64,000 bases of DNA. Origin: Vulcanimicrobiales bacterium (lineage in GTDB: Bacteria > Vulcanimicrobiota > Vulcanimicrobiia > Vulcanimicrobiales > Vulcanimicrobiaceae). The stretch spans positions 1 to 64,000 of the forward strand of contig JBBRLI010000002.1 in the NCBI GenBank assembly GCA_038231455.1, written 5' to 3'. A model generated the notes under the pieces. That model was given only the letters and a program-made list of their open reading frames with translations, had not been told where the DNA came from and did not search any database. This document shows positions 506 through 12,239 of the stretch, one piece after another (position 1 is the first letter of the stretch; each line of letters opens with the position of its first letter). Both the position numbers and the translations under genes were made by a program.

Positions 506-1534
506 TTATGGGACGACGCTTGCGGCTATCGCTGCTAGTTCCTTAATATCGAGGTCGCCGACTAAGGCGAATGCTAACCCGTGTTCGCGCCAGGAGAGGA
601 GCGTTGTTGGGCCGTCGCTGACGTAGCTTCCATCGTGATCTTCGAAGCGGATCTTGGTTGGCTTTTGCGCGCCGAAGTCGGCTGCTGCCGAACCCGCGTT
701 TTCGAAGAGTGAGAGGTCGCGTACGCCGTCGGAGTAGAGGAAGTGAAAGCTTTTGATCGTGCGGATCATCGAGACGTCGGCGCTTACGAGTGAGAAGCCC
801 TCGGGCAGACGCTTCGGATTCATCGGGGTGAATCCGGCTGTTTTGATCGTTGCCTCGAGGTCGGTCGATGGTTGGGCGTAGTTGCGCCCGGCGACGGAGA
901 TGAAGCCGGCGGTATCGCGGGTGAAGACGCCACTTGGGATGTCGTTGGTGAAGCGGATGTCATCGAATCGCACGCGTGAGATCAGCGAGCCGTCGGCGTG
1001 GTAGAGTTCTTTTGCGAGGACGATATGCGTTTGCGCGTCGATCCATAAGCGTACGGCACGTTCGCCCGTGAACTTGTTCACAAGCGAGATCGTATTGCTC
1101 GTGCGACCCGCGACGGATTCATCGGGACCCGAGACCGCGCGGTAGTTGGCCGTCAGCAGAATAATGTTGTCGTTTTCCGCTACGGGATTATCGCTTGCGG
1201 GGTTCTGCGAGGTCGTGACCGTTTTCTTTTGCGGGTCGAACTGGTAGCTCGACGTGCCGTGCGTGATGATGTACTGGCCATAGATCGACGGCGGTGCAAT
1301 AAACGTCTTGCGCGTATCGCCGGGCGCGCGGTGCTCGACCCGCGTGACCGTTGAGGTCGCGCGTATCGGGCCCCAGCTCGTCATCTGTAACTGGCCCACG
1401 TACGAAACGTGTTTCGGTGCGTCGATCGCCTCGCGCACGAGCGCGTCAGCCGTGTCCGCAAGTGCGGGAGCTCCAAGACACGAAACGAGCGCCGCCAGGG
1501 CGATGCTCGAGCGGGTGAGGTTAGTTCTTCGCAC
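506..1534 (-). CDS. MucB/RseB-like periplasmic sigma-E regulatory protein
   Basis: Signal peptide, LolA-like region (VAGR...LWIDAQTHIVL), LPEGF and YSDG..LSLFE motifs; third gene of the ECF operon; GTG 1534 chosen as start. Confidence 0.8.
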   Translation of the reverse strand: MRRTNLTRSSIALAALVSCLGAPALADTADALVREAIDAPKHVSYVGQLQMTSWGPIRATSTVTRVEHRAPGDTRKTFIAPPSIYGQYIITHGTSSYQFDPQKKTVTTSQNPASDNPVAENDNIILLTANYRAVSGPDESVAGRTSNTISLVNKFTGERAVRLWIDAQTHIVLAKELYHADGSLISRVRFDDIRFTNDIPSGVFTRDTAGFISVAGRNYAQPSTDLEATIKTAGFTPMNPKRLPEGFSLVSADVSMIRTIKSFHFLYSDGVRDLSLFENAGSAAADFGAQKPTKIRFEDHDGSYVSDGPTTLLSWREHGLAFALVGDLDIKELAAIAASVVP

Positions 1535-2042
1535 TGGCGAGGGTGTATGAGGCGGAGTTGATCGCGAGCGGCGTTGTTGCGCTTCGCTCGTCAGCATTGA
1601 TCACGCGCAGCGGTCGGTCGGCCAAGGGGTTGGCTTGCGACTCGGCGGCGTGTTCGTCGAGGTAATAGCTCGCCGAGACACCCGGCTGGTCTGCGGGCGT
1701 CAGGCTGTTGCGCGCGGCTGGGACGCCGAAGTAGCCGGCCACCAAGATCACGGCGAGTGCCGGGAGGGCGTAGGCCGGGCGGAAAAAGCTGCGCATCGCT
1801 TCGAGCGCCGACGGGCGTTCGGTTCGAACGGCTGCCCAGATTTGCGCTTTGAGCATCGGCGGGAGTTCGCGTTCTGCGGCCAGCGGCGAGCTGCGCAGCG
1901 CCTCGGTCAAGGCGACCTCCGCGTCGTAGGACGCGCGGCAGTCGACGCACGCCGTAAGGTGCGCGAAGAGGCTTGCGTCTTCGCCCGGAGCGAGTTCGCC
2001 GTGGATGTAGTCGATCAGCGTTTCGTTTAAGTAGTGCATCAC
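1521..2042 (-). CDS. zinc-finger (ZAS) anti-sigma factor
   Basis: HLTACVDC (HxxxCxxC), one TM helix, ATGA overlap with the sigma gene. Confidence 0.9.
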   Translation of the reverse strand: MMHYLNETLIDYIHGELAPGEDASLFAHLTACVDCRASYDAEVALTEALRSSPLAAERELPPMLKAQIWAAVRTERPSALEAMRSFFRPAYALPALAVILVAGYFGVPAARNSLTPADQPGVSASYYLDEHAAESQANPLADRPLRVINADERSATTPLAINSASYTLASAKN

Positions 2043-2641
2043 TTTTGTTCTTGTTGTGCCCGGAGGACAAGACGGCGGAGGAGTGCGCGAGCGCGGTGGA
2101 GTCGGGAGCGGACGGTTCCGATGGAGCAGCCCATCATGTCCGAGATTTCTTGGTAGCTATACTCTTCGATATCGGCAAGGACGATGACACTGCGTTGTTC
2201 GCTTGAGAGCTGTGCAAGCGCGAGGGACATCGGCTCGCTGAGCTGCTTTGAGACGTAGTCTTCGATGGGGTCGGTCGCGAGGGGTCGGCTTCCGCCATAT
2301 TCTTGGGGGGCGTTGTCCTCAGGTATCTCTTCTTGGAAACGTCCTTTCTTGCGCCGAAGTTCATCTCGGTGCAAATTCGTGACGATTCGATAGATCCACG
2401 AGAGGAACGAGGTGCCCGGTTGGAACGATCGCCAGGCCCGGAAGACGCGTAAAAAGGCGTCTTGCGTAAGATCGCGGGCGTCGGCCTCGTTGCCGGTGAG
2501 GCGGTAGGCAAAGTTATACGTCGCCTTGCCGTATTCACTGATCGCCTTTTCGAGAAAGGCCGATGCCTCCGGAGTCGGCGGCTCGGCTTGCTTGCGCGGC
2601 ACTCCCATCCAGTGAACGTCGTTTTCGCCCCGGTTCGACAC
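2039..2641 (-). CDS. ECF RNA polymerase sigma factor (RpoE/SigW-like)
   Basis: Region 2 DARDLTQDAFLRVFR..SFLSWIYRIVTN; region 4 YSYQEISDMMGCSIGTVRSRLHRAR. Confidence 0.95.
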   Translation of the reverse strand: MSNRGENDVHWMGVPRKQAEPPTPEASAFLEKAISEYGKATYNFAYRLTGNEADARDLTQDAFLRVFRAWRSFQPGTSFLSWIYRIVTNLHRDELRRKKGRFQEEIPEDNAPQEYGGSRPLATDPIEDYVSKQLSEPMSLALAQLSSEQRSVIVLADIEEYSYQEISDMMGCSIGTVRSRLHRARALLRRLVLRAQQEQK

Positions 2642-2735: not shown

Positions 2736-4013
2736 GTGGCCGCGATCCCCGCCGAATCCGTTCGCCCGAAGCCCGCAAAGAAGTGGGCGTTGTGGCGTTA
2801 TCTGGCGGTTGCCGGTCCGGGCCTAATCGTCGCCTTCGCCGATACCGAAGCTGGCAGCGTGACAACGGCTGCCACTTCCGGCGCGCAATTCGGCATGAAG
2901 CTCGTGCTCTTACAGCTCTTACTGATCGTTCCGCTCTTCGTCGTACAAGAAATGACCGTCCGTCTGGGGACCGTCACGGGCAAAGGTCACGCGCAGCTCA
3001 TTCGAGACAACTACGGCCTGGGCTGGACGTGGGTATCGCTTGGCACCATGCTGGTGACGAATTTAGCGGCGCTCGTGACCGAGTTCATCGGGATCGCCGG
3101 CGTAGCGCTCATTTTTGGGCTGCCGGCGGCGCCCCTCGTTATCGGGGCAGCTGCGATTTTGATCGCGGTGAGTTTCTCCGGGAAATACAAGCGCGCTGAG
3201 TACATCGCAATGGCGCTCTGTTTTCTCGAGTTGCTCTTCATTCCGGCGGCGTTTGCCGCGCATCCGAGCGCGCACGATGTGGTGATGAACGGCCTCTTTG
3301 GTTCGCAGCCGCTCGGGAATACGACCTACTTGCTGTTGATCGCCGGCAACATTGGTGCCGTCATTATGCCTTGGATGATTTTCTATCAACAGTCGGCCGT
3401 GGTCGATAAGGGTCTCAAAGTAAAAGATCTGAATTTCGCGCGGGTCGATACGGCAATCGGCGCGGTCCTCACGCAAGTCATCATGATCGCAATCGTGGTG
3501 ACTACGGCGGCCACGCTGTTCGTCCATCATCAGAATGTCTCGGATGCCGCGCACGCGGCGCTCGCTCTCGTCCCGTTGACGGGCTCGAAACTCGCAGGAA
3601 TCGCCTTTGGTGCGGGTCTACTCGGTGCGTCGCTCATCGGTGCATTCGTGGTGTCGCTCGCGACGGCGTGGGCTTTTGGTGAAGCCTTTCGCTGGCCGTG
3701 CTCGCTCAATTTCCAGTGTACGCAAGCGAAGCGTTTTTACGGTTTGTATGCCGCAATCGTTGTTATTGCTGCCGGTGTCGTGCTCATTCCGAATCTGCCC
3801 CTGATCAAAATCACGCTTTATGTCGAAGCGTTCAACGCGTTCGTCTTACCGATTGTGCTTGGATTCTTGCTCATCATGGCCAACGACAAGAAAATCTTGG
3901 GCGACCGTGTGAATAGCGCGCTTGGCAATATCGTCACGATCGGTCTCTCCGTCGTCGTCGTCTCACTTGGCGTGTGGATGGCCTATATGACCTTCACCGG
4001 CCAGAACGGTTGA
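2736..4013 (+). CDS. Nramp-family divalent metal transporter (MntH-related)
   Basis: GPGLI..ADTEAG, QEMTVRLG.VTGKG, IGAVIMPWMIFYQQS; many TM helices; SD GAGGAG. Confidence 0.9.
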   Translation: MAAIPAESVRPKPAKKWALWRYLAVAGPGLIVAFADTEAGSVTTAATSGAQFGMKLVLLQLLLIVPLFVVQEMTVRLGTVTGKGHAQLIRDNYGLGWTWVSLGTMLVTNLAALVTEFIGIAGVALIFGLPAAPLVIGAAAILIAVSFSGKYKRAEYIAMALCFLELLFIPAAFAAHPSAHDVVMNGLFGSQPLGNTTYLLLIAGNIGAVIMPWMIFYQQSAVVDKGLKVKDLNFARVDTAIGAVLTQVIMIAIVVTTAATLFVHHQNVSDAAHAALALVPLTGSKLAGIAFGAGLLGASLIGAFVVSLATAWAFGEAFRWPCSLNFQCTQAKRFYGLYAAIVVIAAGVVLIPNLPLIKITLYVEAFNAFVLPIVLGFLLIMANDKKILGDRVNSALGNIVTIGLSVVVVSLGVWMAYMTFTGQNG

Positions 4014-4402: not shown

Positions 4403-6712
4403 CTATTTTCCGCTAAAGCGCACGCCGACTTCGACGCTGCGTGGCCGCGCATAATGGTTCCCTTGGGCATTGAGATACGTTACCCGGTAGCGGTCGTTCA
4501 ACAGATTGTGAACGGTCAGGGTCAACGCGCCGCCTTTTCCCGTCCCGAAGCCCTTCTGGAGATCGAACGTGGTATGCGGGGGTGATTTACAGTTATCGTT
4601 TGCCGGGTCGCAGCCGGCAGAAGTTAATCCCGAGCCGTATTCCCCGTTAACCGCAAGCCATCCGCCGCGTGTGTCGTTGAGGAGAATGCCGCCGTTGAAG
4701 TCGACACGCTGATCGTGATCGGCTGGGCTCCAATCGGTCGCCGGACCGCTAAAGCACGGTGCGAGGAGCTGCGTCTCACATTCTTTGACGACCGAGTATG
4801 TGTGCGTCGCCGATACATAGAAGCGGCCGCTGCGTGCGAGCGAGTGTTGGAAGAACGCGGTCTGCGTTCCGATACGACCAAGCTTATAGTTGATATCTTG
4901 GTGCAAATTTGTATTTAACACCGCCGTGTCGTCGATCACGTCAGTAGCGTTCTTCTGCATGATACGGATTCCGAGATCGCCGCCCGCGAGCGGAAGATGA
5001 CCGCCGATTTCATAAACGGAATCGCGCTGTGGGAGAAGGTCGAAATTTCCGCTCGCCGGATTGAGCGCCTGGCCCGTTGCCGGTGAGACGTTTTCAAACG
5101 AATACGGGGTGAAGAAGCGGCCATAATACGCATATAAACTCGCGCGCGGCCCAAGGAACCGCGTGAGCTTGACGCGTGGGCTGAGCATGAACGAGCCCGA
5201 GCGGAACTGCGTCGATGTGAGTTGGAACGCATCGGCACGGACGCCGTAATCCAGTTCGTAACCAGTGCCCATGCGCCAAGAATCTTGCAGGTACGCTTCT
5301 TCGGTGTGGCCGGTGTTCGGAGCGCGATCGCCAATCGTTGCGGGCGCAACGCCGAGCGGATTGTTCGATTGGAGTGTAACTGCGTAGTCTTTGCTTATCG
5401 TCGTCAGGTCGTAAAGCGTTCCGGCCTTGATCGCGTGACGGTCGCTGCGCAGTTCGTAGTCCACGTTGAAGCGATAATCGAGCGACGTACGATCGGCGCG
5501 AACGGCAAACGAACAGGTCGTTATGTCGGCCGAACAATTGGGCGTTCCGCCCGCGGCGATTCCGGCAGCGATATCGTTTGCGAAGTCCGGGGAATCTACG
5601 ATATGCGAGCGCTTGACGCTCGGTCCGAACGAGAGTGCACCGCGTTCTCCGATCGCATGGCGAAATTGTAGCGATCCGAAGAGGTCATCCTGACGTTCGT
5701 TGTCGTCTTGCTTCGAGGGTGCGCCGCTTTCGACGTCAGGTGGGATCTGATACGTTTGTAGCGAGTGCGTGAGCGTGAAATTCACAAAGTCCGTCGAACC
5801 GTGCGGAAGCGTCAGGCGAAGGAACTGGTTTGCGTTGCTGCCGCCGTTGTGCGGGGAGTTTTCGTTTGGCGGATCGAGTGCCCGGCCGTCGCGTTCGTTG
5901 CGTACCGCAAGGGAGATCGAGCCTGCACCGACGGGCGCGTGATAGCCAATCGTTCCGTCATACTTTGCATAGCTTCCGCCGAGCGCGTCAACCGTAAATC
6001 CCGGCGCGCCGCTTCCGCTACGCGTCGAGAGGTTGAGGACGGAGCCGAATTTCTCGCCGTATTGGGCGGGATACGCGCCTTCGAGCACTTCGGCGTATGC
6101 AAGGTTACTCGGATCGACTTCGCTGCCGATCACGCGATTGAGGGCCTGAGGTAAGGAGACGCCATCGACAACGTAGTTGATGTCGCCGTGATCGCCGTTG
6201 ATGTGCACGGTTCCGTTAGCACCGCGCGCGGCGCCGGGCAACTGGAGGAGGATCTCCGAGAAGTTGCCTGCTGCGGGCGAGCGCGAAAACGATTGGGCAT
6301 TGATCGTGACGTCGGTGCCGCCGCCGCGCACGATCGCACGCGATTGGGCGTTTGTGCGTCCGATCGTTTTGATTTCTTTCTGGACGTTAATCTCGAGATT
6401 TGCGCCAGCAGTATTGAGATCGACGCGGATGTCGTTATTTCCGAGGCTCGATGCGACAGCGATATCGTACGTTCCCACGGAGAGCGCGCTAAACGAGAAT
6501 TTGCCGCGCGCGTCCGTTTGCGTGCGCAAGGTGAGGTTGTTGCCGATCAAGCTGACGGATGCGGCGGGAACGGGTTGTCCATTGGAAACGACGGTGCCGG
6601 TGAGGAACGTCGTCGCGGCAAGCGCGGGCGTCGCCACCATGGCAATCAGGATGGCGAGCGTCGCCAGAAGTGCAGCACAGCGCCGCAACGGCTCGTGAAC
6701 GAGTGTAAACAC
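4403..6712 (-). CDS. TonB-dependent receptor with N-terminal carboxypeptidase-regulatory-like domain
   Basis: Signal peptide; GTV..GQPVPAASV...TDARGKFSF domain; plug (YVVDG, GAYPAQYG); barrel motifs (AYLQDSW, YGVRAD, SPRV, HNLLNDRY); SD AGGAG then GTG 6712 (TTG 6715 alternative). Confidence 0.92.
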   Translation of the reverse strand: MFTLVHEPLRRCAALLATLAILIAMVATPALAATTFLTGTVVSNGQPVPAASVSLIGNNLTLRTQTDARGKFSFSALSVGTYDIAVASSLGNNDIRVDLNTAGANLEINVQKEIKTIGRTNAQSRAIVRGGGTDVTINAQSFSRSPAAGNFSEILLQLPGAARGANGTVHINGDHGDINYVVDGVSLPQALNRVIGSEVDPSNLAYAEVLEGAYPAQYGEKFGSVLNLSTRSGSGAPGFTVDALGGSYAKYDGTIGYHAPVGAGSISLAVRNERDGRALDPPNENSPHNGGSNANQFLRLTLPHGSTDFVNFTLTHSLQTYQIPPDVESGAPSKQDDNERQDDLFGSLQFRHAIGERGALSFGPSVKRSHIVDSPDFANDIAAGIAAGGTPNCSADITTCSFAVRADRTSLDYRFNVDYELRSDRHAIKAGTLYDLTTISKDYAVTLQSNNPLGVAPATIGDRAPNTGHTEEAYLQDSWRMGTGYELDYGVRADAFQLTSTQFRSGSFMLSPRVKLTRFLGPRASLYAYYGRFFTPYSFENVSPATGQALNPASGNFDLLPQRDSVYEIGGHLPLAGGDLGIRIMQKNATDVIDDTAVLNTNLHQDINYKLGRIGTQTAFFQHSLARSGRFYVSATHTYSVVKECETQLLAPCFSGPATDWSPADHDQRVDFNGGILLNDTRGGWLAVNGEYGSGLTSAGCDPANDNCKSPPHTTFDLQKGFGTGKGGALTLTVHNLLNDRYRVTYLNAQGNHYARPRSVEVGVRFSGK

Positions 6713-6788
6713 CAAAAAACTCCTAGAAAATCGGGAGACCCGGCGCGCAGCGCGCGGGCGAAATTAGGCCGAAATCGGAGTGGTGTTC
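6707..6788 (-). promoter_or_regulatory. predicted SD/start-sequestering mRNA stem
   Basis: mRNA GAACACCA-CUCC (6788-6777) is complementary to GGAG...UGGUGUUU (6723-6707), which holds the SD and GUG; nested UCGG/CCGA pair and GC hairpin inside. Confidence 0.65.
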
Positions 6789-7363
6789 GGTGGCGGACGG
6801 TTGGGGACGAAAAGCGCGTAAATGCGGGCCCGCGGGAGATGCGGGATTGCAAAATAGCGACGTGCAACGCGGACCGCGCAGCGGGTCGAACGGTCGCGAT
6901 CGATATAGTGTGTGAGTGCCGAGGCGATTGCGACGAGCGGAGCTGCACCCGCGTCGAGAAGCAGCGCACCGAGGATTGCGGCCAAGACCGCAGACACGAG
7001 CGACCCAAGCGAGCCAAGCGGTGTGAGCGCCGTGCCCTCAAGCGTCAGCGTCAGAGCGGCAAAGCCGATTTGTAGTCCCACAGCCAGGGCCGCGAATTCG
7101 GGTCCGCGGCCGCGTCTTGGTAAGTCGGCGATGAGGAGCGTGAGGGTGCGCCTGCGGTCGTGCGTCGAGCCGCCTCGCGCGGCGAGCGCGATCAGAAGAA
7201 CGATCGATAAGGCGAGCAGACCCAGCAAATAGCTGTGCCGCGCGGCAAAATCGGCGGTCACGCCGACGCCGACGATTTCCCAAAACACGTGGACGGCCGC
7301 TCCAAGCGGCATCATGAGTGCAGCGAGGAGGCCGACGGCGCGCAAGCGACGAGTCGTCATCAT
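6764..7363 (-). CDS. multi-pass membrane leader protein with C-terminal RPPP arrest-like motif
   Basis: About 4 hydrophobic helices, AAVH..E and RHSY His motifs, basic tail ending VPNRPPPNTTPISA; about 50 nt upstream of the receptor. Confidence 0.8.
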   Translation of the reverse strand: MMTTRRLRAVGLLAALMMPLGAAVHVFWEIVGVGVTADFAARHSYLLGLLALSIVLLIALAARGGSTHDRRRTLTLLIADLPRRGRGPEFAALAVGLQIGFAALTLTLEGTALTPLGSLGSLVSAVLAAILGALLLDAGAAPLVAIASALTHYIDRDRSTRCAVRVARRYFAIPHLPRARIYALFVPNRPPPNTTPISA

Positions 7364-7407
7364 CGAGCTCTCAAACACGAAGCGGACGCGATTCTTTGCA
7401 CCAACGC

Positions 7408-7443
7408 AAAAAAAAAGCCCACCGCCGGACACGCGGTGGGCTT
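7408..7443 (-). terminator. intrinsic terminator
   Basis: AAGCCCACCGC/GCGGTGGGCTT stem followed by a 9-T run on the minus strand, after the lipoprotein gene. Confidence 0.9.
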
Positions 7444-7457
7444 GGAACGTGCCGCGG

Positions 7458-8438
7458 CTAGTGCGGTGTTGACGAGGGGTTTGCGCTCGGAGCCGGAGAG
7501 GGGCTCGCGCTCGGCGCGGCCGATTCGGAGGGTTCGACGCTGGGCGCTGCAGATGCGGTGGCACTTGGGGTTGCGCTCGGCGCGCTGCTGGGGCAAGGCG
7601 ATGCTGCGGTCCCGGTCGTGTTCGCCGTAATCGGCCCTTTGAGGTCGAGCGTCGGCTGACCGTTGGAACCAAAGATGCGGATGCGCAGACGGAACGTTCC
7701 ACTTGGAATCGGGATCGTCAGGGCTGAGGTGAGCGCCCCTTCGAATTTGAAACGGACGCCGGCGTCATCGTCGCCGTCTTGCGAGCGCAATTCAATTTTA
7801 ACGCGCGAGAGACTCGCGCCGTTCGGAGCGATCGTGAGCGATGTGCACGAAGCCGTCACCGTAACCGGCAGGTTCGACGGGAATGCATTTGTGGACGTGG
7901 TAACGGCGGTCGGATTGCCGTCTTTGTCTTCATCGATCGTCGAAGTTGCGGAGCCGGGCGAAGGTGACGCCGATGGTGATGCTCCGTTTCCGGCGTGTTC
8001 GGGTTGCGCGGAGACCCTCAAGGTTCCATCGGGTTTTACCATGACTGAGACGGCGGTTCCGTCGTCGGCGTCGGCGAGCACGACCGTTGCTTTTTGCGAA
8101 CCCGCGGTCACCACGACGGTCGCGCCGCGCGGCACATCGGCCGTGAATGTGATGGTCGCATGTCCGTTCGCATCGAGCGTCCCACTTGCAACGATTTTAT
8201 CGCGATACGTTACCGTGATTGGCGTACCGCTGAGTGCTTGCGTCTGCCGGCCGGCGCTAAGTGTGCTCGTTCCGGAAAAACCGATATCCATAACGCGCGT
8301 CGTTGTACGAAGCGCCGCCGCCGTTGCGAGGGAGGTCGGTACGCTAGCGTTCGGCACAGCGCTCGTTCCGCCGCCGCTGCAGCCGACAAACGCAATCGCG
8401 ACCGATGCGAGAAGACCGAAGCCGATCCGATAATTCAT
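7458..8438 (-). CDS. putative lipoprotein with Ser/Ala/Pro-rich tail
   Basis: Lipobox FVGC-SGGG; beta-rich body; SAxPS low-complexity C-terminus; SD GGGAG. Confidence 0.8.
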   Translation of the reverse strand: MNYRIGFGLLASVAIAFVGCSGGGTSAVPNASVPTSLATAAALRTTTRVMDIGFSGTSTLSAGRQTQALSGTPITVTYRDKIVASGTLDANGHATITFTADVPRGATVVVTAGSQKATVVLADADDGTAVSVMVKPDGTLRVSAQPEHAGNGASPSASPSPGSATSTIDEDKDGNPTAVTTSTNAFPSNLPVTVTASCTSLTIAPNGASLSRVKIELRSQDGDDDAGVRFKFEGALTSALTIPIPSGTFRLRIRIFGSNGQPTLDLKGPITANTTGTAASPCPSSAPSATPSATASAAPSVEPSESAAPSASPSPAPSANPSSTPH

Positions 8439-8479
8439 AGTTTCTCCCTAAGCTGGACTCCGTAGCGATGTTGCGGCTA

Positions 8480-8511
8480 ACACTACGAATCGATCGTGAA
8501 GAAACGATGAA
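8480..8511 (-). promoter_or_regulatory. possible OmpR/PhoB-type direct repeat plus -10 element
   Basis: Minus strand TTCAT-N6-TTCAC (11-bp period), 10 nt, then TAGTGT. Confidence 0.4.
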
Positions 8512-8615
8512 AAATTCCGCGTGGGCCGATCACTATGCGCTCGCTCACAACGATCGAGTCACGAAGCGTGCGTTCGGTTGACGCGGGTTTGCACGAAAAA
8601 CGTATTCGTCGTCGT

Positions 8616-10916
8616 TTACAAGGGAGCGATAATTCGAAACGTTAGCGATGTACCGGCGGCCCACTGCGAGGTATTGAATCCGTTATTGAACTTGAGTAGA
8701 TATTTGCGATTGGTAAGGTTGGTTATGTCGAGGCCCAGGCCGAGGCGATGCGCCGCGGGCTCGCGCCCAAGTGCGATATCAAACGTTACATGAGGGGGCA
8801 AGCGACCGCCGGTGCCATCGAGGAACTGGACGGGGTAGCCGGTGCCAAATTGCGGTTCGAGCGTCGCGTAGTAGCCCGACGATCCAAATCGCCGTGTGTA
8901 CGCGCCGTTGATCGAGAGCGTTTGATCGTGGTCTTCCGGCTGGAAGCCGCTCGCGTTGATCGCGGCCAGTTGGCTCGGTGGGATGATGAACGTGCCGCCC
9001 GAGATGCCGCTCGCCTCCGAGCTTGATAGGGTCGTCGAAAGGAAGAACGTGTCTCCGTTTACGCGACGACCGTCGAGCCGCGCTTCGACCCCTTCGTCTC
9101 GACCGAGCGTCGAATTATACACCGCGTATATCGGGGTGTTCGCGAGTTGCGTGGTATCGAGTACGTTTGCCACGTTCCGGCGGAAGTAATTTGCGTATCC
9201 GCGCAGGTTTGCACCGAACGTGTGCGCGATGCCCATCTCGTAGTACGAATCGCGTTGCGGTTGAAGATCGTAGACCGGTAAGACACCGGGGCTGTTCAAG
9301 ACGAGTGCGCTTGCATCGCGACGGGTATCTTCAAGCGCCGGCGCCGCGTAATTGCGGCCGTAGTAGAAGTGCACGACGTTGCGGCGGTCCGGCGCGAGGT
9401 TGATTTCGAACCGCGGGCTGATTTGATTGCCGCTGGTAAAGCCGGTCGAGCGGTCATAACGCACGCCCGCATTGAGAGTAAGGGCCGGCGAGGGCGACCA
9501 CTTATCTTGAATGTATGCACCGATCTGCGTCCCGTGTCGGCTTGCGTTGTCGAGAAGATCGGGGGGTGTTCCGTTCGTGATGCGGGAGTCAGAACGGAAG
9601 TTCTCACCCGAATAATCGAAGCCGATTTTGATAGCATGATGATCGCTTGCGCGGAAATTCGCCAGCCGCAGACCGGCGTAACTTGCGGATCGATCCTCGC
9701 GAAGTCCGGTAAGGTTTCCGGTCGGGGCGCCGGTCGCATCGACCGTTGTCGCAAGGACGTCTTGCGCCAGATCACCGGCGTAGACGATCCTGGAATTCCG
9801 AACCCACGGAATGATTTGAAAAAATCCTTGGCCGTCGGTCGCCGTGTGCGTCAATGCAAAGGAGGCCGTCCGATCGTACTCGCGCTGAACGTCATCTGTG
9901 CCCCGCGCACTGATGACCGGGTCGTTCGGACTAAACGTCGTGTTGGTCGGGATCTGAAATGCGGAAAAATTGTTCGAGTAGTTAAACGCAAGCGACGTGT
10001 TCTCGCCGATCGGTTTGAGGATACGCAGAAATTGATCGGCGAGATTCGAGCGATCGTGGTTGGGGACGAACGTCGGCGAATCGAGTCCGCGGCTTGAACG
10101 TGCGTCGCTTGCTCCGACGAACACCCGCGTTGCGCCGAGTGCGAACGATTGTGCAAGACGCATCTCGGCCTCGCCGTAGCTGCCAGCACCCAGCGTAAAT
10201 GTTCCGGACGCGCGCGCGCCAAGGTCGCTCGGACGTTTGGAGACGATATTGACGACTGCGCCCTGACGCGAGCCGCCGAACTCGGCGGGAAATGCTCCCG
10301 TGAAGACCTCGATCGAATCGACGTTGCGCGGATCGACGATCTCGGCAAAGTTGGAACTCGTCGACTGCGGCAGCGGGGCGCCGTCTAGTTCGTAGAGCAG
10401 GCCGTGGAAGCCATGCGCGACGGGTTCGTTATACGAGAATTTTACGACGCCCGGCGCGGTTTCAACGAGCGATGCGAGCGATTCGGGATTTGGCAACACG
10501 GCGATAAGCCCGGCTCCGATCGTATTTTGCGAGACCGGCGTTCCGCTCGCGCCGCGCGAGGTTGCGCTCACGCGGCCGATGACGCGTGCGTCGCTCGTGA
10601 CCGAGAGGGCCACATTGGCGACATCCCCGCTTCCAACGGAGATTTCCAGGGGCGGTGCCGTGCGTCCGTCCGGGATTTTTGCCGCAATGTGATAATCTCC
10701 AAACGGCACGCGGGCGAACGCAAAGCGGCCGTCGCCTTGCGAATCGGTCCCGAGGATGAGCGATCCCCCCGCAAGGGTGACATGTGCGGCGACAGGCCGA
10801 CCATCGAGCGTGACGGTGCCACGAACGAAGCCTACGGTATCAGCGAAGGCCGGCGACATGGTTCCAAGGGCAATGAGTACCGCGCAGGCTAGCTGCGCGA
10901 CAAAACGACGAGACAA
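8616..10916 (-). CDS. TonB-dependent receptor with N-terminal carboxypeptidase-regulatory-like domain
   Basis: Signal peptide; plug (YELDG, TGAFPAEFG, GAVVNIVSK); AYIQDKW, GVRYD, SPRF, NLTNRKY; SD GGAGGA then TTG 10916 (TTG 10928 alternative). Confidence 0.92.
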   Translation of the reverse strand: MSRRFVAQLACAVLIALGTMSPAFADTVGFVRGTVTLDGRPVAAHVTLAGGSLILGTDSQGDGRFAFARVPFGDYHIAAKIPDGRTAPPLEISVGSGDVANVALSVTSDARVIGRVSATSRGASGTPVSQNTIGAGLIAVLPNPESLASLVETAPGVVKFSYNEPVAHGFHGLLYELDGAPLPQSTSSNFAEIVDPRNVDSIEVFTGAFPAEFGGSRQGAVVNIVSKRPSDLGARASGTFTLGAGSYGEAEMRLAQSFALGATRVFVGASDARSSRGLDSPTFVPNHDRSNLADQFLRILKPIGENTSLAFNYSNNFSAFQIPTNTTFSPNDPVISARGTDDVQREYDRTASFALTHTATDGQGFFQIIPWVRNSRIVYAGDLAQDVLATTVDATGAPTGNLTGLREDRSASYAGLRLANFRASDHHAIKIGFDYSGENFRSDSRITNGTPPDLLDNASRHGTQIGAYIQDKWSPSPALTLNAGVRYDRSTGFTSGNQISPRFEINLAPDRRNVVHFYYGRNYAAPALEDTRRDASALVLNSPGVLPVYDLQPQRDSYYEMGIAHTFGANLRGYANYFRRNVANVLDTTQLANTPIYAVYNSTLGRDEGVEARLDGRRVNGDTFFLSTTLSSSEASGISGGTFIIPPSQLAAINASGFQPEDHDQTLSINGAYTRRFGSSGYYATLEPQFGTGYPVQFLDGTGGRLPPHVTFDIALGREPAAHRLGLGLDITNLTNRKYLLKFNNGFNTSQWAAGTSLTFRIIAPL

Positions 10917-10920
10917 ACGA

Positions 10921-10989
10921 TCCTCCAAAATAAAAGCGCAATCGAATCGGCAGTCAAAACTGCCGAGGAACGGTCAGCGCAGCGGAGGA
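10921..10989 (-). promoter_or_regulatory. predicted SD-sequestering structure
   Basis: UCCUCC within the Ala-Pro-Pro codons (10989-10984) is complementary to SD GGAGGA (10926-10921); perfect 8-bp hairpin TCGGCAGT/ACTGCCGA (10947-10966) lies between them. Confidence 0.6.
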
Positions 10990-11567
10990 GCGCGCCCAAG
11001 GCGCGATCCACGGCCGAGACGGCCCGTGTGGAGCGGACGGCGTGCCGCGATGGGAGCAATCTCAACAACTGGTCCGGAGGCCGACAGCAGAACGGCCAGG
11101 AGTCGGACAAAGGCCACGCCGAGGTCGGACATGGCTAGCGTGAGAGCACGGATGGCCAGCGCAAGCACGAGCGAGACGACAAGCATCAGCGCGACGGGAA
11201 GGACGAAATCGGCGAAAAGACCTTGGACCGGGCAACAGCTCTCGAGTCGCTCGACCCCAAAGTACACAGCGACCCCGCTCGTGGCGATCGCAGCGGTGGT
11301 CGCGCCGATCGAGCCGCGTCCAGGAAGTACGTCCAGCAAGCGCCGCGCCACGATCGACCCGGACGCACATGTCCGCGCCTCGCGGGCGATCAGCCACACG
11401 GCCCCGACCGCAAGCCCGATGAGCGCGACCACGGCAAAGCTGACCAGGGCCTCATTGCCCTCGCCGCCCATCGCGTGATCGTCTCCAAACCGGACCTGGT
11501 GTGCCAAAAGCGCGCTCAGGACGGCGAGGGGAACGACCGCAACCCCTCTGCGGATGCCCATGGTCAT
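10974..11567 (-). CDS. multi-pass membrane leader protein with C-terminal RAPP arrest-like motif
   Basis: About 4 TM helices, LLAH...DDH motif, ESCC, basic tail ending GRAPPLR*; directly upstream of the receptor. Confidence 0.8.
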   Translation of the reverse strand: MTMGIRRGVAVVPLAVLSALLAHQVRFGDDHAMGGEGNEALVSFAVVALIGLAVGAVWLIAREARTCASGSIVARRLLDVLPGRGSIGATTAAIATSGVAVYFGVERLESCCPVQGLFADFVLPVALMLVVSLVLALAIRALTLAMSDLGVAFVRLLAVLLSASGPVVEIAPIAARRPLHTGRLGRGSRLGRAPPLR

Positions 11568-11675
11568 TTGATTACTCGGCCCCGAATCTCGTCCCCGGTC
11601 CGCCAATGTCCTCGCAGGTGGGCGGCCCGCCCGGGTGCGAAGATTGCGCGCCCCCCAACCCGCTTCCGGAAAGAT

Positions 11676-12239
11676 GTGGCTCCCGTGCCGACCCCGCGCG
11701 CCCCGTTTGAGTCTGCCGACACGGTCAATTTGATCGTGGCACTCCTCGTGCGCTTTCCGGAGCTCTCGAGTTTACGCTCGCGACCGGCGCTCGGAGCGAT
11801 CACGCTCTCGTATGCCATCGCCGGTGCGCTCACACCGGAAGAACAAACCGCAACAACCGCCTCACTCGTCGACCATATCCGCGCGTTGCTCGACTTCGCT
11901 GATGAGCCGCTCCAGAAGTTGTCGGTCCGCTGCGAGGTCGACGAGACGCTTTCGTTCGTACACGTGACACGCGACGTAAATTCGTTCTCGCGCGAAGAGC
12001 TCTCCTTACATGTCTCGATTTTGACGGAACGGTTCGCCGAGCGGCTCGTCAAAAATGAGACACCCGACGAATCGATCGACGATGATCCGGCCGCACGCGA
12101 CGAGCTGGTGGAGTACGCGATCGACTCGATGCGCGACCCCGCGCAGCAGAAGTCCGTCGTCGGGTTTCGCGAAGAGAAGCGTGTGCTAGTGTACTTCCTC
12201 AAAGCCGGTAAGAACGGCAAGGCTCGGGCGCGATCGTAA
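11676..12239 (+). CDS. hypothetical protein (first gene of the ymdB-spoVS block)
   Basis: Protein-like composition (VNLIVALLVRFPE...VVGFREEKRVLVYF); start uncertain. Confidence 0.7.
   Translation: MAPVPTPRAPFESADTVNLIVALLVRFPELSSLRSRPALGAITLSYAIAGALTPEEQTATTASLVDHIRALLDFADEPLQKLSVRCEVDETLSFVHVTRDVNSFSREELSLHVSILTERFAERLVKNETPDESIDDDPAARDELVEYAIDSMRDPAQQKSVVGFREEKRVLVYFLKAGKNGKARARS

Follow-up and report, generated by a model that had tools for sequence, protein, structure and literature searches.

Positions 1 to 64,000 of contig JBBRLI010000002.1 (GenBank assembly GCA_038231455.1, Vulcanimicrobiales bacterium; this whole 64,000-nucleotide stretch is hereafter the window) contain two cassettes in which a leader gene for a small membrane protein precedes a gene for a TonB-dependent receptor. 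We propose that leader 2, the upstream open reading frame (ORF) of one of these cassettes, is probably an arrest-peptide switch: the codons of its C-terminal Arg-Ala-Pro-Pro (RAPP) motif, at which a ribosome would stall, double as the mask of the receptor's Shine-Dalgarno (SD) sequence, and this mask would be lifted during the stall. The core of this proposal, the pairing of arrest codons with the SD, is supported at the level of the leader family and more weakly at the leader 2 locus alone.

All elements of the locus are on the minus strand. The leader 2 ORF (10974..11567) has 197 codons and a stop (ATG at 11567, TGA at 10976-10974), and its product ends ...RLGRAPPLR. The RAPP motif is encoded by CGC GCT CCT CCG (10983..10994) and is followed by the tail codons CTG CGC (Leu-Arg, 10982-10977) and TGA; this end piece (10974..10982) would lie wholly inside the assumed footprint of a RAPP-stalled ribosome. 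Published RAPP peptides (PMC12992588; PMC10951233) suggest that a stalled ribosome would hold CCT (10988-10986) at its P site and CCG (10985-10983) at its A site. Leader 2 shares several features of RxPP arrest peptides: a motif two codons before TGA, transmembrane helices (in a structural model) and a co-directional gene after a short spacer. This gene (8616..10916), separated from the leader by 57 nucleotides (nt; the family median is 45 nt), encodes a TonB-dependent receptor of 766 codons with a signal peptide and CarboxypepD_reg, Plug (PF07715, 2.2e-6) and barrel (PF00593, 4.7e-18) domains in Pfam. Its TTG start (10916-10914) aligns with an ATG in a homologue from the same genus (L010). 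A sequence search of solved structures with the receptor gave no match.

The SD of the receptor gene is UGGAGGA (10921..10927), of which GGAGGA (10926-10921) ends four bases before TTG 10916. The initial annotation had pointed out that the RAPP codons (10994-10983) contain UCCUCC, the complement of this GGAGGA, and the coordinates bear this out; the anti-SD may be written as UCCUCCG (10983..10989), within the Ala-Pro-Pro codons. In both minimum-energy and centroid structures calculated with ViennaRNA for segments 10905-11003 and 10880-11060, UCCUCCG (10989-10983) is paired with UGGAGGA (10927-10921). It had also been suggested that a perfect hairpin of 8 base pairs and a GCGC/GCGC helix bring the two partners together, and both elements do nest inside the predicted pairing in either segment: the helix joins 10980-10977 with 10939-10936, and the hairpin, TCGGCAGT-TTTG-ACTGCCGA, occupies 10947..10966. 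Thus, the downstream SD is predicted to be base-paired in free leader 2 mRNA. A second SD-complementary stretch, UUCCUC (10965..10970), lies just 3' of the stop, where it overlaps the foot of the hairpin and falls just beyond the assumed footprint.

The codons that create this complementarity are unusual for the genome. CCT accounts for 5.1% of 46,347 Pro codons in long ORFs of leader 2's own genome, and only 3 of its 319 Ala-Pro-Pro tripeptides are encoded by GCT CCT CCx. When the motif segment was hybridized in silico with the 18 nt before the receptor start, the duplex energy was -11.3 kcal/mol, compared with a mean of -6.9 kcal/mol for 200 synonymous recodings, of which 0.5% were as good. 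Scans for other regulatory elements gave little. An Rfam scan of 6500-11900 returned no known RNA family, only one chance-level snoRNA match; no promoter-like site was seen in 10700-11900, and a terminator scan of the same region gave one weak site of 5 pairs overlapping the 8-bp hairpin, a number not above that in shuffled sequences. A look-up of sequencing runs listed no RNA run that contains this stretch.

To place leader 2 in a family, we searched for its relatives. A protein search yielded 18 homologues, one of them labelled Candidatus Velthaea (Eremiobacterota), and all full-length proteins among them finish with RRF-GRAPP and a variable tail of a few residues. When 400 genomes of the phylum were searched with a profile, one Eremiobacterota family gave matches in 164 of its 296 genomes (a tally that takes in 6 unpublished genomes), and 20 other families gave none in 104 genomes. 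Among 1.84 billion representative proteins, 188 reached E <= 0.001; of the best 150 of these, 140 end with R[A/P]PP within 22 residues of the end (RPPP in 95, RAPP in 45), the remaining 10 being fragments or proteins with an aberrant end. We gathered 133 loci, and the analysis below was made on 123 distinct ones; rows left out were L025 (unpublished genome), L010 (no motif) and L052 (runs off its contig). Pairing counts exclude 5 further loci for which no downstream start was called, leaving 118, and limits on length or flanks leave 117 or 116 in some comparisons. Two subfamilies could be distinguished, one with the ending ...RRFGRAPP, which contains leader 2, and a larger one with ...RRRFARPPP; each full-length member has either RAPP or RPPP at its end. 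Tails after the motif range from 1 to 10 codons.

Codon usage in these loci argues for the anti-SD. The initial annotation had singled out codon conservation among homologues as a check. Of the 123 loci, 97 use CCT for the P-site proline, although CCT makes up only 6.0% of the 2,492 Pro codons in the same loci. CCT is also the choice for the proline just before it in 64 of 92 RPPP loci, and GCT encodes the alanine in 13 of 30 RAPP loci (background 8%). The Arg codon varies freely (CGT, CGG, CGC, CGA and AGG); it sits outside the helix, and the Arg itself is invariant. CCTCC occurs within the motif in 105 of 123 loci; when related sequences are clustered, most members carry it in 55 of the 63 clusters formed at 70% identity and in 12 of the 17 formed at 50%. 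Related loci have a strong SD ahead of the downstream start. The mean duplex energy of motif segment and the 18 nt before this start is -15.4 kcal/mol across the family, compared with -9.35 for recodings and -7.9 for windows taken elsewhere in each ORF, and the native motif beats 95% of its own synonymous recodings in 93 of 118 loci. Position was analyzed by scanning every 12-mer from 150 nt upstream through the spacer against the SD segment. Relative to the Arg codon, the best partner starts between -6 and +10 nt in 85 of 117 loci (10.3 expected); in 7 more it starts at +11 to +22, and in 25 it lies far upstream. Thus, there is codon-level selection for SD complementarity across the family.

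Covariation gives a further, less uniform, line of evidence. In the RPPP subfamily, CCU CCU CCG AUC is exactly complementary to GAUCGGAGGA, and tails that start with GUC go with GACCGGAGG. An alignment of 86 RPPP sequences over 12 pairs has 79.5% of cells paired (31–51% when the partner is slid). Both sides of a pair have changed in 37 cells, compared with 11.8 in shuffles that make no correction for relatedness between the sequences (0 of 500 reach the observed value), and 10 of the 12 pairs show such changes. In the 30 RAPP sequences, 69.5% of cells are paired (30–50% when slid). Family codon bias, the recoding comparison, the position scan and the compensatory changes of the RPPP subfamily together uphold the idea that the arrest codons hold an anti-SD.

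Where the motif itself is without CCUCC, as in clades that read CCG CCC CCG or CCG CCG CCG, complementarity may be found nearby: in L076, L118 and L133, tail and stop, CUUCCUUAA, are exactly complementary to UUAAGGAAG at the downstream start. Two other arrangements were noticed in the family. Six loci (L078, L081, L085, L114, L122 and L126), also from these clades, share the tail G.MLLPV and, by eye, a GAUGCUA...UAGCAUC stem with CUCC in its loop, and their SD is unpaired with the motif. In RPPP loci such as L019, L021 and L033, a conserved palindrome, GCGCG-UAA-(N)CGCGC, places the leader stop codon in a hairpin loop and sits just 3' of the expected end of an RPPP-stalled ribosome.

The proteins encoded by these leaders are conserved in a manner consistent with a sensor. 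Eight residues are invariant in 123 of 123 loci: H23, H31, P82, E106, E109, R192, P194 and P195 (leader 2 numbering). In leader 2, the codon of His23 is at 11499..11501, that of His31 at 11475..11477, Glu106 to Glu109 (E-R-L-E) at 11241..11252, and the invariant R, P and P of the motif are those of RAPP. The R-F/L-G/A residues ahead of the motif are also conserved, and the distance from E109 to the motif Arg is 73–76 residues in 119 of 123 loci (83 in leader 2). An AlphaFold2 model of leader 2 (mean pLDDT 73.9) has helices at residues 3–27, 39–63, 87–109 and 117–162 and a tail that is disordered from about residue 163, with residues 170–197 below pLDDT 50. Leader 2 is therefore modelled as a four-helix inner-membrane protein of about 190 residues with a disordered basic tail of about 33 residues, a length that would roughly match that of the ribosomal exit tunnel. 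His23 lies at what is presumably the outer end of helix 1 and His31 in the loop joining helices 1 and 2. The His/His/Glu/Glu set is placed on one face, probably the periplasmic one.

Of the residues that the initial annotation had highlighted as LLAH...DDH and ESCC, H23 and H31, together with E109, are thus invariant, and the cysteines are not conserved. The ESCC sequence is confined to the nearest relatives of leader 2, other members having EGNG, EHGF and similar sequences at this position, and no conserved cysteine occurs in the family. Cys-Cys, which had been put forward as a candidate ligand, was accordingly rejected as a family ligand.

Leader 2 had no match to Pfam or NCBIfam families. 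DUF2946, the family of known copper-responsive leaders, gave no match for leader 2 (E <= 0.01) or for any of 14 family members (E <= 10), and a Foldseek search of the model against PDB found nothing at E <= 0.001. In the ESM Atlas, unnamed clusters of proteins of about 200 residues, commonest in Actinomycetota, were retrieved with a score of 0.95, which we regard as a lead only. We also scanned leader 2's own genome for ORFs ending in R[AGP]PP and obtained 73 stop-to-stop frames; by eye, all but the two leaders looked spurious in this GC-rich genome.

The effect of a stalled ribosome was then modelled by masking a footprint assumed to reach from -12 to +16 nt around the P site. As the read-out we used the free energy of opening the ribosome-binding site, since the probability that the SD is unpaired is uninformative (the SD re-pairs with pyrimidine tracts). 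Across the family, the mean cost of opening was 12.1 kcal/mol without a ribosome, 8.9 kcal/mol when one occupied the motif and 11.6 kcal/mol when a control ribosome was placed 36 nt upstream. The mean gain was 3.7 kcal/mol in the RPPP subfamily and 1.6 kcal/mol in the RAPP subfamily, and it was at least 3 kcal/mol in 57 of 117 loci. At the leader 2 locus, pairing of motif and SD at a probability of about 0.9 gave way to weak, diffuse pairs under the modelled stalled ribosome.

Several observations weigh against a switch that works through arrest codons and SD. Since alignment columns of the RAPP subfamily, which includes leader 2, show little variation, pairing there does not exceed that of shuffles (matched by 114 of 500); no enrichment of compensatory changes was seen either. 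The RPPP result is in turn subject to the uncorrected relatedness mentioned above. At the leader 2 locus, total fold energies are ordinary (z = -1.6 and -1.2 for the two segments), and the probability of the SD-motif pairing varies from 0.45 to about 0.9 with the segment folded (about 0.9 in 11060-10885). Moreover, the best 12-mer partner of the SD segment is here, by a small margin, a second CCUCC (codons GCC UCC, near 11083-11072) inside leader 2, about 89 nt upstream, with -11.7 kcal/mol. The modelled unmasking at this locus is small to moderate, a gain of 0.3–5.6 kcal/mol over five windows and 0.4 in the family-wide set-up, and in 27 of 117 loci the gain is below 1 kcal/mol. With the motif masked, the mean probability that the SD is paired is still 0.81, compared with 0.87 unmasked; the pyrimidine-rich intergenic regions keep most of it paired in the model. 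A clade with CCG CCG CCG has no motif-SD pairing. Finally, a shortened leader without the RAPP motif (L010; proteins P0004 and P0005) is present in one genome of the same genus and in two metagenome clusters, for which the switch is therefore dispensable. The L010-type leader ends ...LLPPRGVK and is without the 8-bp hairpin, whereas its locus retains GGAGGA and the receptor gene; this type may be a deregulated variant. In sum, the claim that arrest codons hold the anti-SD finds support at the level of the family and weaker support at the leader 2 locus.

One alternative is that the leaders represent plain translational coupling, in which the 3' end of the leader masks the SD and RxPP slightly slows every ribosome, with no signal being sensed. 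Coupling commonly takes the form of an upstream ORF whose end masks the SD of the next gene. The natural variants without the motif, including the one in the same genus, are in line with it, and in the model a terminating ribosome opens the leader 2-receptor site about as well as a stalled one. Against it, Arg and Pro-Pro are invariant in 123 of 123 loci, including those with the anti-SD outside the motif, and the His/His/Glu/Glu set is invariant too, with a near-constant spacing to the motif; invariant residues and fixed spacing suggest instead a sensor mechanically coupled to the arrest site. In addition, RAPP is a strong arrest core resistant to elongation factor P (EF-P) in the peptides tested in the published survey (PMC12992588). 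We therefore consider coupling without sensing unlikely, although it is the alternative that survives best.

Control of transcription, as reported for CruR, was also considered. In that case, the stalled ribosome would leave the SD masked but would block Rho or otherwise keep RNA polymerase going, the receptor gene would be transcribed during arrest only, and CCUCC-SD pairing would be secondary. The CruR-BfrG system offers a precedent, with RAPP before a TonB transporter and a Rho-based mechanism (PMC9426467); in addition, the intergenic regions of the leader family are pyrimidine-rich and 41 of 61 genomes of the family, 2 unpublished ones included in the count, have a Rho RNA-binding domain. 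However, neither leader 2's genome (G000, completeness 93.7%) nor G283, the only genome of the same genus that was searched, yielded this domain. The intergenic regions are short (the median of 45 nt compares with 162 nt in cruR-bfrG), and the leader 2 spacer contains a stable hairpin, unlike an unstructured Rho-binding site. Rho control would also leave the codon-level SD complementarity and the compensatory changes unexplained. We regard it as a rather poor candidate for the mechanism at this locus.

A third possibility is that CCU was chosen for decoding, as a rare codon that is wobble-read by tRNA-Pro(GGG) and strengthens or times the stall, so that its complementarity to the SD is coincidental, as it would be for any CCU-CCN pair. 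CCT is indeed rare (5.1% of Pro codons), and the genome has tRNA-Pro anticodons CGG, GGG and UGG, so CCU and CCG use different tRNAs. Yet the preference extends beyond the P site, to the codon before it (CCT in 64 of 92 RPPP loci) and to GCT for Ala. Complementarity likewise reaches into the first tail codon (CCG AUC with GAUCGG) and changes in step with it (GUC with GACC), some loci whose motif is without CCUCC have an SD complement in the tail (for example, L076, L118 and L133), and the RAPP of CruR is described as using frequent codons (PMC9426467). A purely decoding-related choice is thus improbable. The converse, that there is no arrest and that Pro-Pro(-Pro) is a by-product of selection for the RNA mask CCUCCUCC, with the tail inactive on the ribosome, is hardly credible: CCU CCU CCG does necessarily encode Pro-Pro-Pro and the tail is disordered in the model, but the Arg is invariant though its codon varies and lies outside the helix, the R-F/L-G/A residues before the motif are conserved, and clades with CCG CCG CCG or CCG CCC CCG retain RPPP. 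Judged from these sequences, the RxPP peptide is selected on its own account, beyond RNA pairing, because Arg persists despite its varying codon and because the CCG-only clades keep RPPP.

The arrest-peptide switch that we favour might operate as follows. In the OFF state, UCCUCCG in free mRNA would pair with the receptor SD, UGGAGGA, about 60 nt downstream, and the start would be masked; the 8-bp hairpin and the GCGC helix would draw SD and anti-SD together. By analogy with the published RAPP peptides, a ribosome translating leader 2 would stall once CCU, the first Pro codon, has reached the P site and CCG occupies the A site. In the ON state, which we infer to be the stalled one, the ribosome held by RAPP would keep the anti-SD codons in its decoding centre, so that their pairing is blocked, the binding site becomes easier to open and the receptor is translated. 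Release of the arrest would be followed by termination two codons later, after which the mask could re-form. It would most likely come about by force from insertion or folding of the membrane domain, possibly altered by a metal at the His/Glu site.

The genes that follow the leaders point to metal homeostasis. The next gene resembles the receptors of the window in 105 of 118 loci with a called start. In L111 it encodes CopC (E = 5e-17), and in L044 and L003 a CusF-like protein, with a receptor behind it in L003 (coordinates in L003, 3606-3974 and 3629-6346). Another 8 loci (for example, L016, 533-1438) have a gene for a secreted protein outside Pfam; it is about 300 residues long, and HVVCGDRVFPT opens its mature end. 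Thus, the leader family heads metal-homeostasis genes, and because next genes other than receptors include CopC and CusF-like ones, copper is our best guess for the ligand of the family. The suggestion of the initial annotation that the two receptors of the window answer to different metals found no support in these data, in which the neighbours point to copper for the leader 2 family.

A more general formulation can be offered, though tentatively. The same 9–12 nt would encode a stalling tripeptide and serve as anti-SD, forming a dual-coding occupancy switch whose mask is lifted exactly and only while the ribosome occupies it. This switch would be embedded in a new family of four-helix membrane sensors, with a periplasm-facing His/His/Glu/Glu set that probably responds to copper, and would control TonB-dependent receptors of Eremiobacterota in EF-P-resistant (RAPP) and possibly EF-P-sensitive (RPPP) forms. 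EF-P is present, and the RPPP forms may therefore be EF-P-sensitive.

The other cassette of the window appears to follow the same logic with a different sequence, as had been proposed. Leader 1 (6764-7363, minus strand) is a 199-residue membrane protein ending NRPPPNTTPISA, with a spacer to about 6712, and its receptor gene (4403-6712, minus strand) has a GUG start. Its RPPP codons, CGT CCG CCA CCG, are without CCUCC; in minimum-energy and centroid folds, GAACACC ACUCC (6788-6777), just after RPPP, pairs with the SD GGAGU and the GUG start region. Membership of leader 1 in the leader 2 family was tried and rejected (BLASTP E = 0.81; both subfamily hidden Markov models E = 0.21, in a two-sequence search). 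The receptors behind leaders 1 and 2 are 29% identical over their full length. Between the cassettes lies a lipoprotein-like ORF of 326 residues (7458-8438, minus strand) whose Big_6 and CopC matches are sub-threshold only. Other genes near the cassettes encode an Nramp metal transporter (2736-4013, plus strand), an extracytoplasmic function (ECF)-type sigma factor (2039-2641, minus strand) and a MucB/RseB-like protein (506-1597, minus strand).

RAPP upstream ORFs before TonB receptors have been published already (CruR; Fujiwara 2025). What is new here is a different sensor protein and the use of arrest codons as anti-SD. In literature searches on Eremiobacterota with TonB and RAPP, and on arrest peptides with an anti-SD and synonymous or proline codons, which did not cover supplementary tables, neither the family nor an arrest-codon anti-SD was described. 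If correct, our proposal supplies a link between RAPP arrest and translation of the next gene that is missing for ApdA and ApdP. RAPP-type arrest peptides are now known before many genes outside protein export, TonB-dependent receptors among them. For these, a relay from stall to next gene is known in only two cases, both DUF2946 proteins, and runs through Rho in CruR and an intergenic stem-loop in CutF. Here, the answer would be compact, as the stall codons would themselves be the mask, and it is testable by a few synonymous and compensatory mutations. Nature provides evidence of the same kind in a rare codon kept in about four-fifths of the loci and in paired changes in the RPPP subfamily. 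The work also adds an unnamed sensor family with an invariant His/His/Glu/Glu set and would open a first way into the regulation of metal uptake in Eremiobacterota, for which all genome records seen here are metagenome-assembled.

Among known systems, ApdA, ApdP, ApcA and the ORFs of the RAPP survey (PMC7897499; PMC10951233; PMC12992588) have in common with leader 2 a C-terminal RxPP near the stop, a membrane or export signal at the N terminus and a gene downstream in the same direction. According to the survey, arrest is supported by RxPP when x is G, A, S or P and, in the case of RAPP, withstands EF-P, and TonB-dependent receptors are among the gene classes enriched behind RAPP upstream ORFs (PMC12992588). 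The upstream ORFs that it describes before such receptors are almost all signal-peptide proteins, whereas the leader 2 family consists of multi-pass proteins in which the RPPP form dominates. For ApcA, ApdA and ApdP, folding reportedly predicted no hairpin that would sequester the SD (PMC7897499). Such a stem is a feature of SecM-secA and MifM-yidC2, where a stalled ribosome prevents its formation and the arrest is released by pulling force, as is proposed for leader 2; these two systems differ in their arrest sequences and in their targets, which are the export or insertion machines themselves.

CruR (Bp2923) of Bordetella pertussis is likewise an exported-protein ORF before a TonB-dependent copper transporter, BfrG/CrtA (PMC9426467; PMC12914433), and it is reported to control BfrG by copper via RAPP and Rho, with its DUF2946 domain and CXXC motif (PMC9426467). 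It resembles leader 2, as proposed here, in having a metal-binding motif at a fixed distance from RAPP and in that, in the published account, arrest is needed for downstream expression (PMC9426467); RAPP lies three residues from the C terminus in CruR and two in leader 2. The proteins are otherwise distinct. CruR is described as a 145-residue DUF2946 protein with a signal peptide and CXXC, whereas leader 2 is predicted to have four helices and a His/His/Glu/Glu set and gave no DUF2946 match; the CXXC/CxxxC of the DUF2946 family, about 45 residues before the proline motif, has no counterpart in the leader 2 family. The mechanisms appear to differ as well, with Rho, a 162-nt spacer and frequent RAPP codons in CruR, and a 57-nt spacer, rare SD-complementary codons and a genome in which Rho was not found in leader 2.

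CutF, encoded upstream of cutO in Rhodobacter capsulatus, is also among the closest known systems. Stalling at its C-terminal proline sequence, GPPPRL, is reported to melt a stem-loop that shields the SD (PMC9973294; 10.1101/2025.02.05.636593), and metal sensing on the periplasmic side during co-translational export, as well as the PPP form of the stall, parallel what we propose for this family and its RPPP subfamily. CutF differs from leader 2 in being a DUF2946-like protein with CxxxC and a cleaved signal peptide, and in having a multicopper oxidase as its target. The two also differ in where the mask is encoded: the anti-SD of CutF is located in an intergenic stem-loop, whereas that of leader 2 lies in the stall codons.

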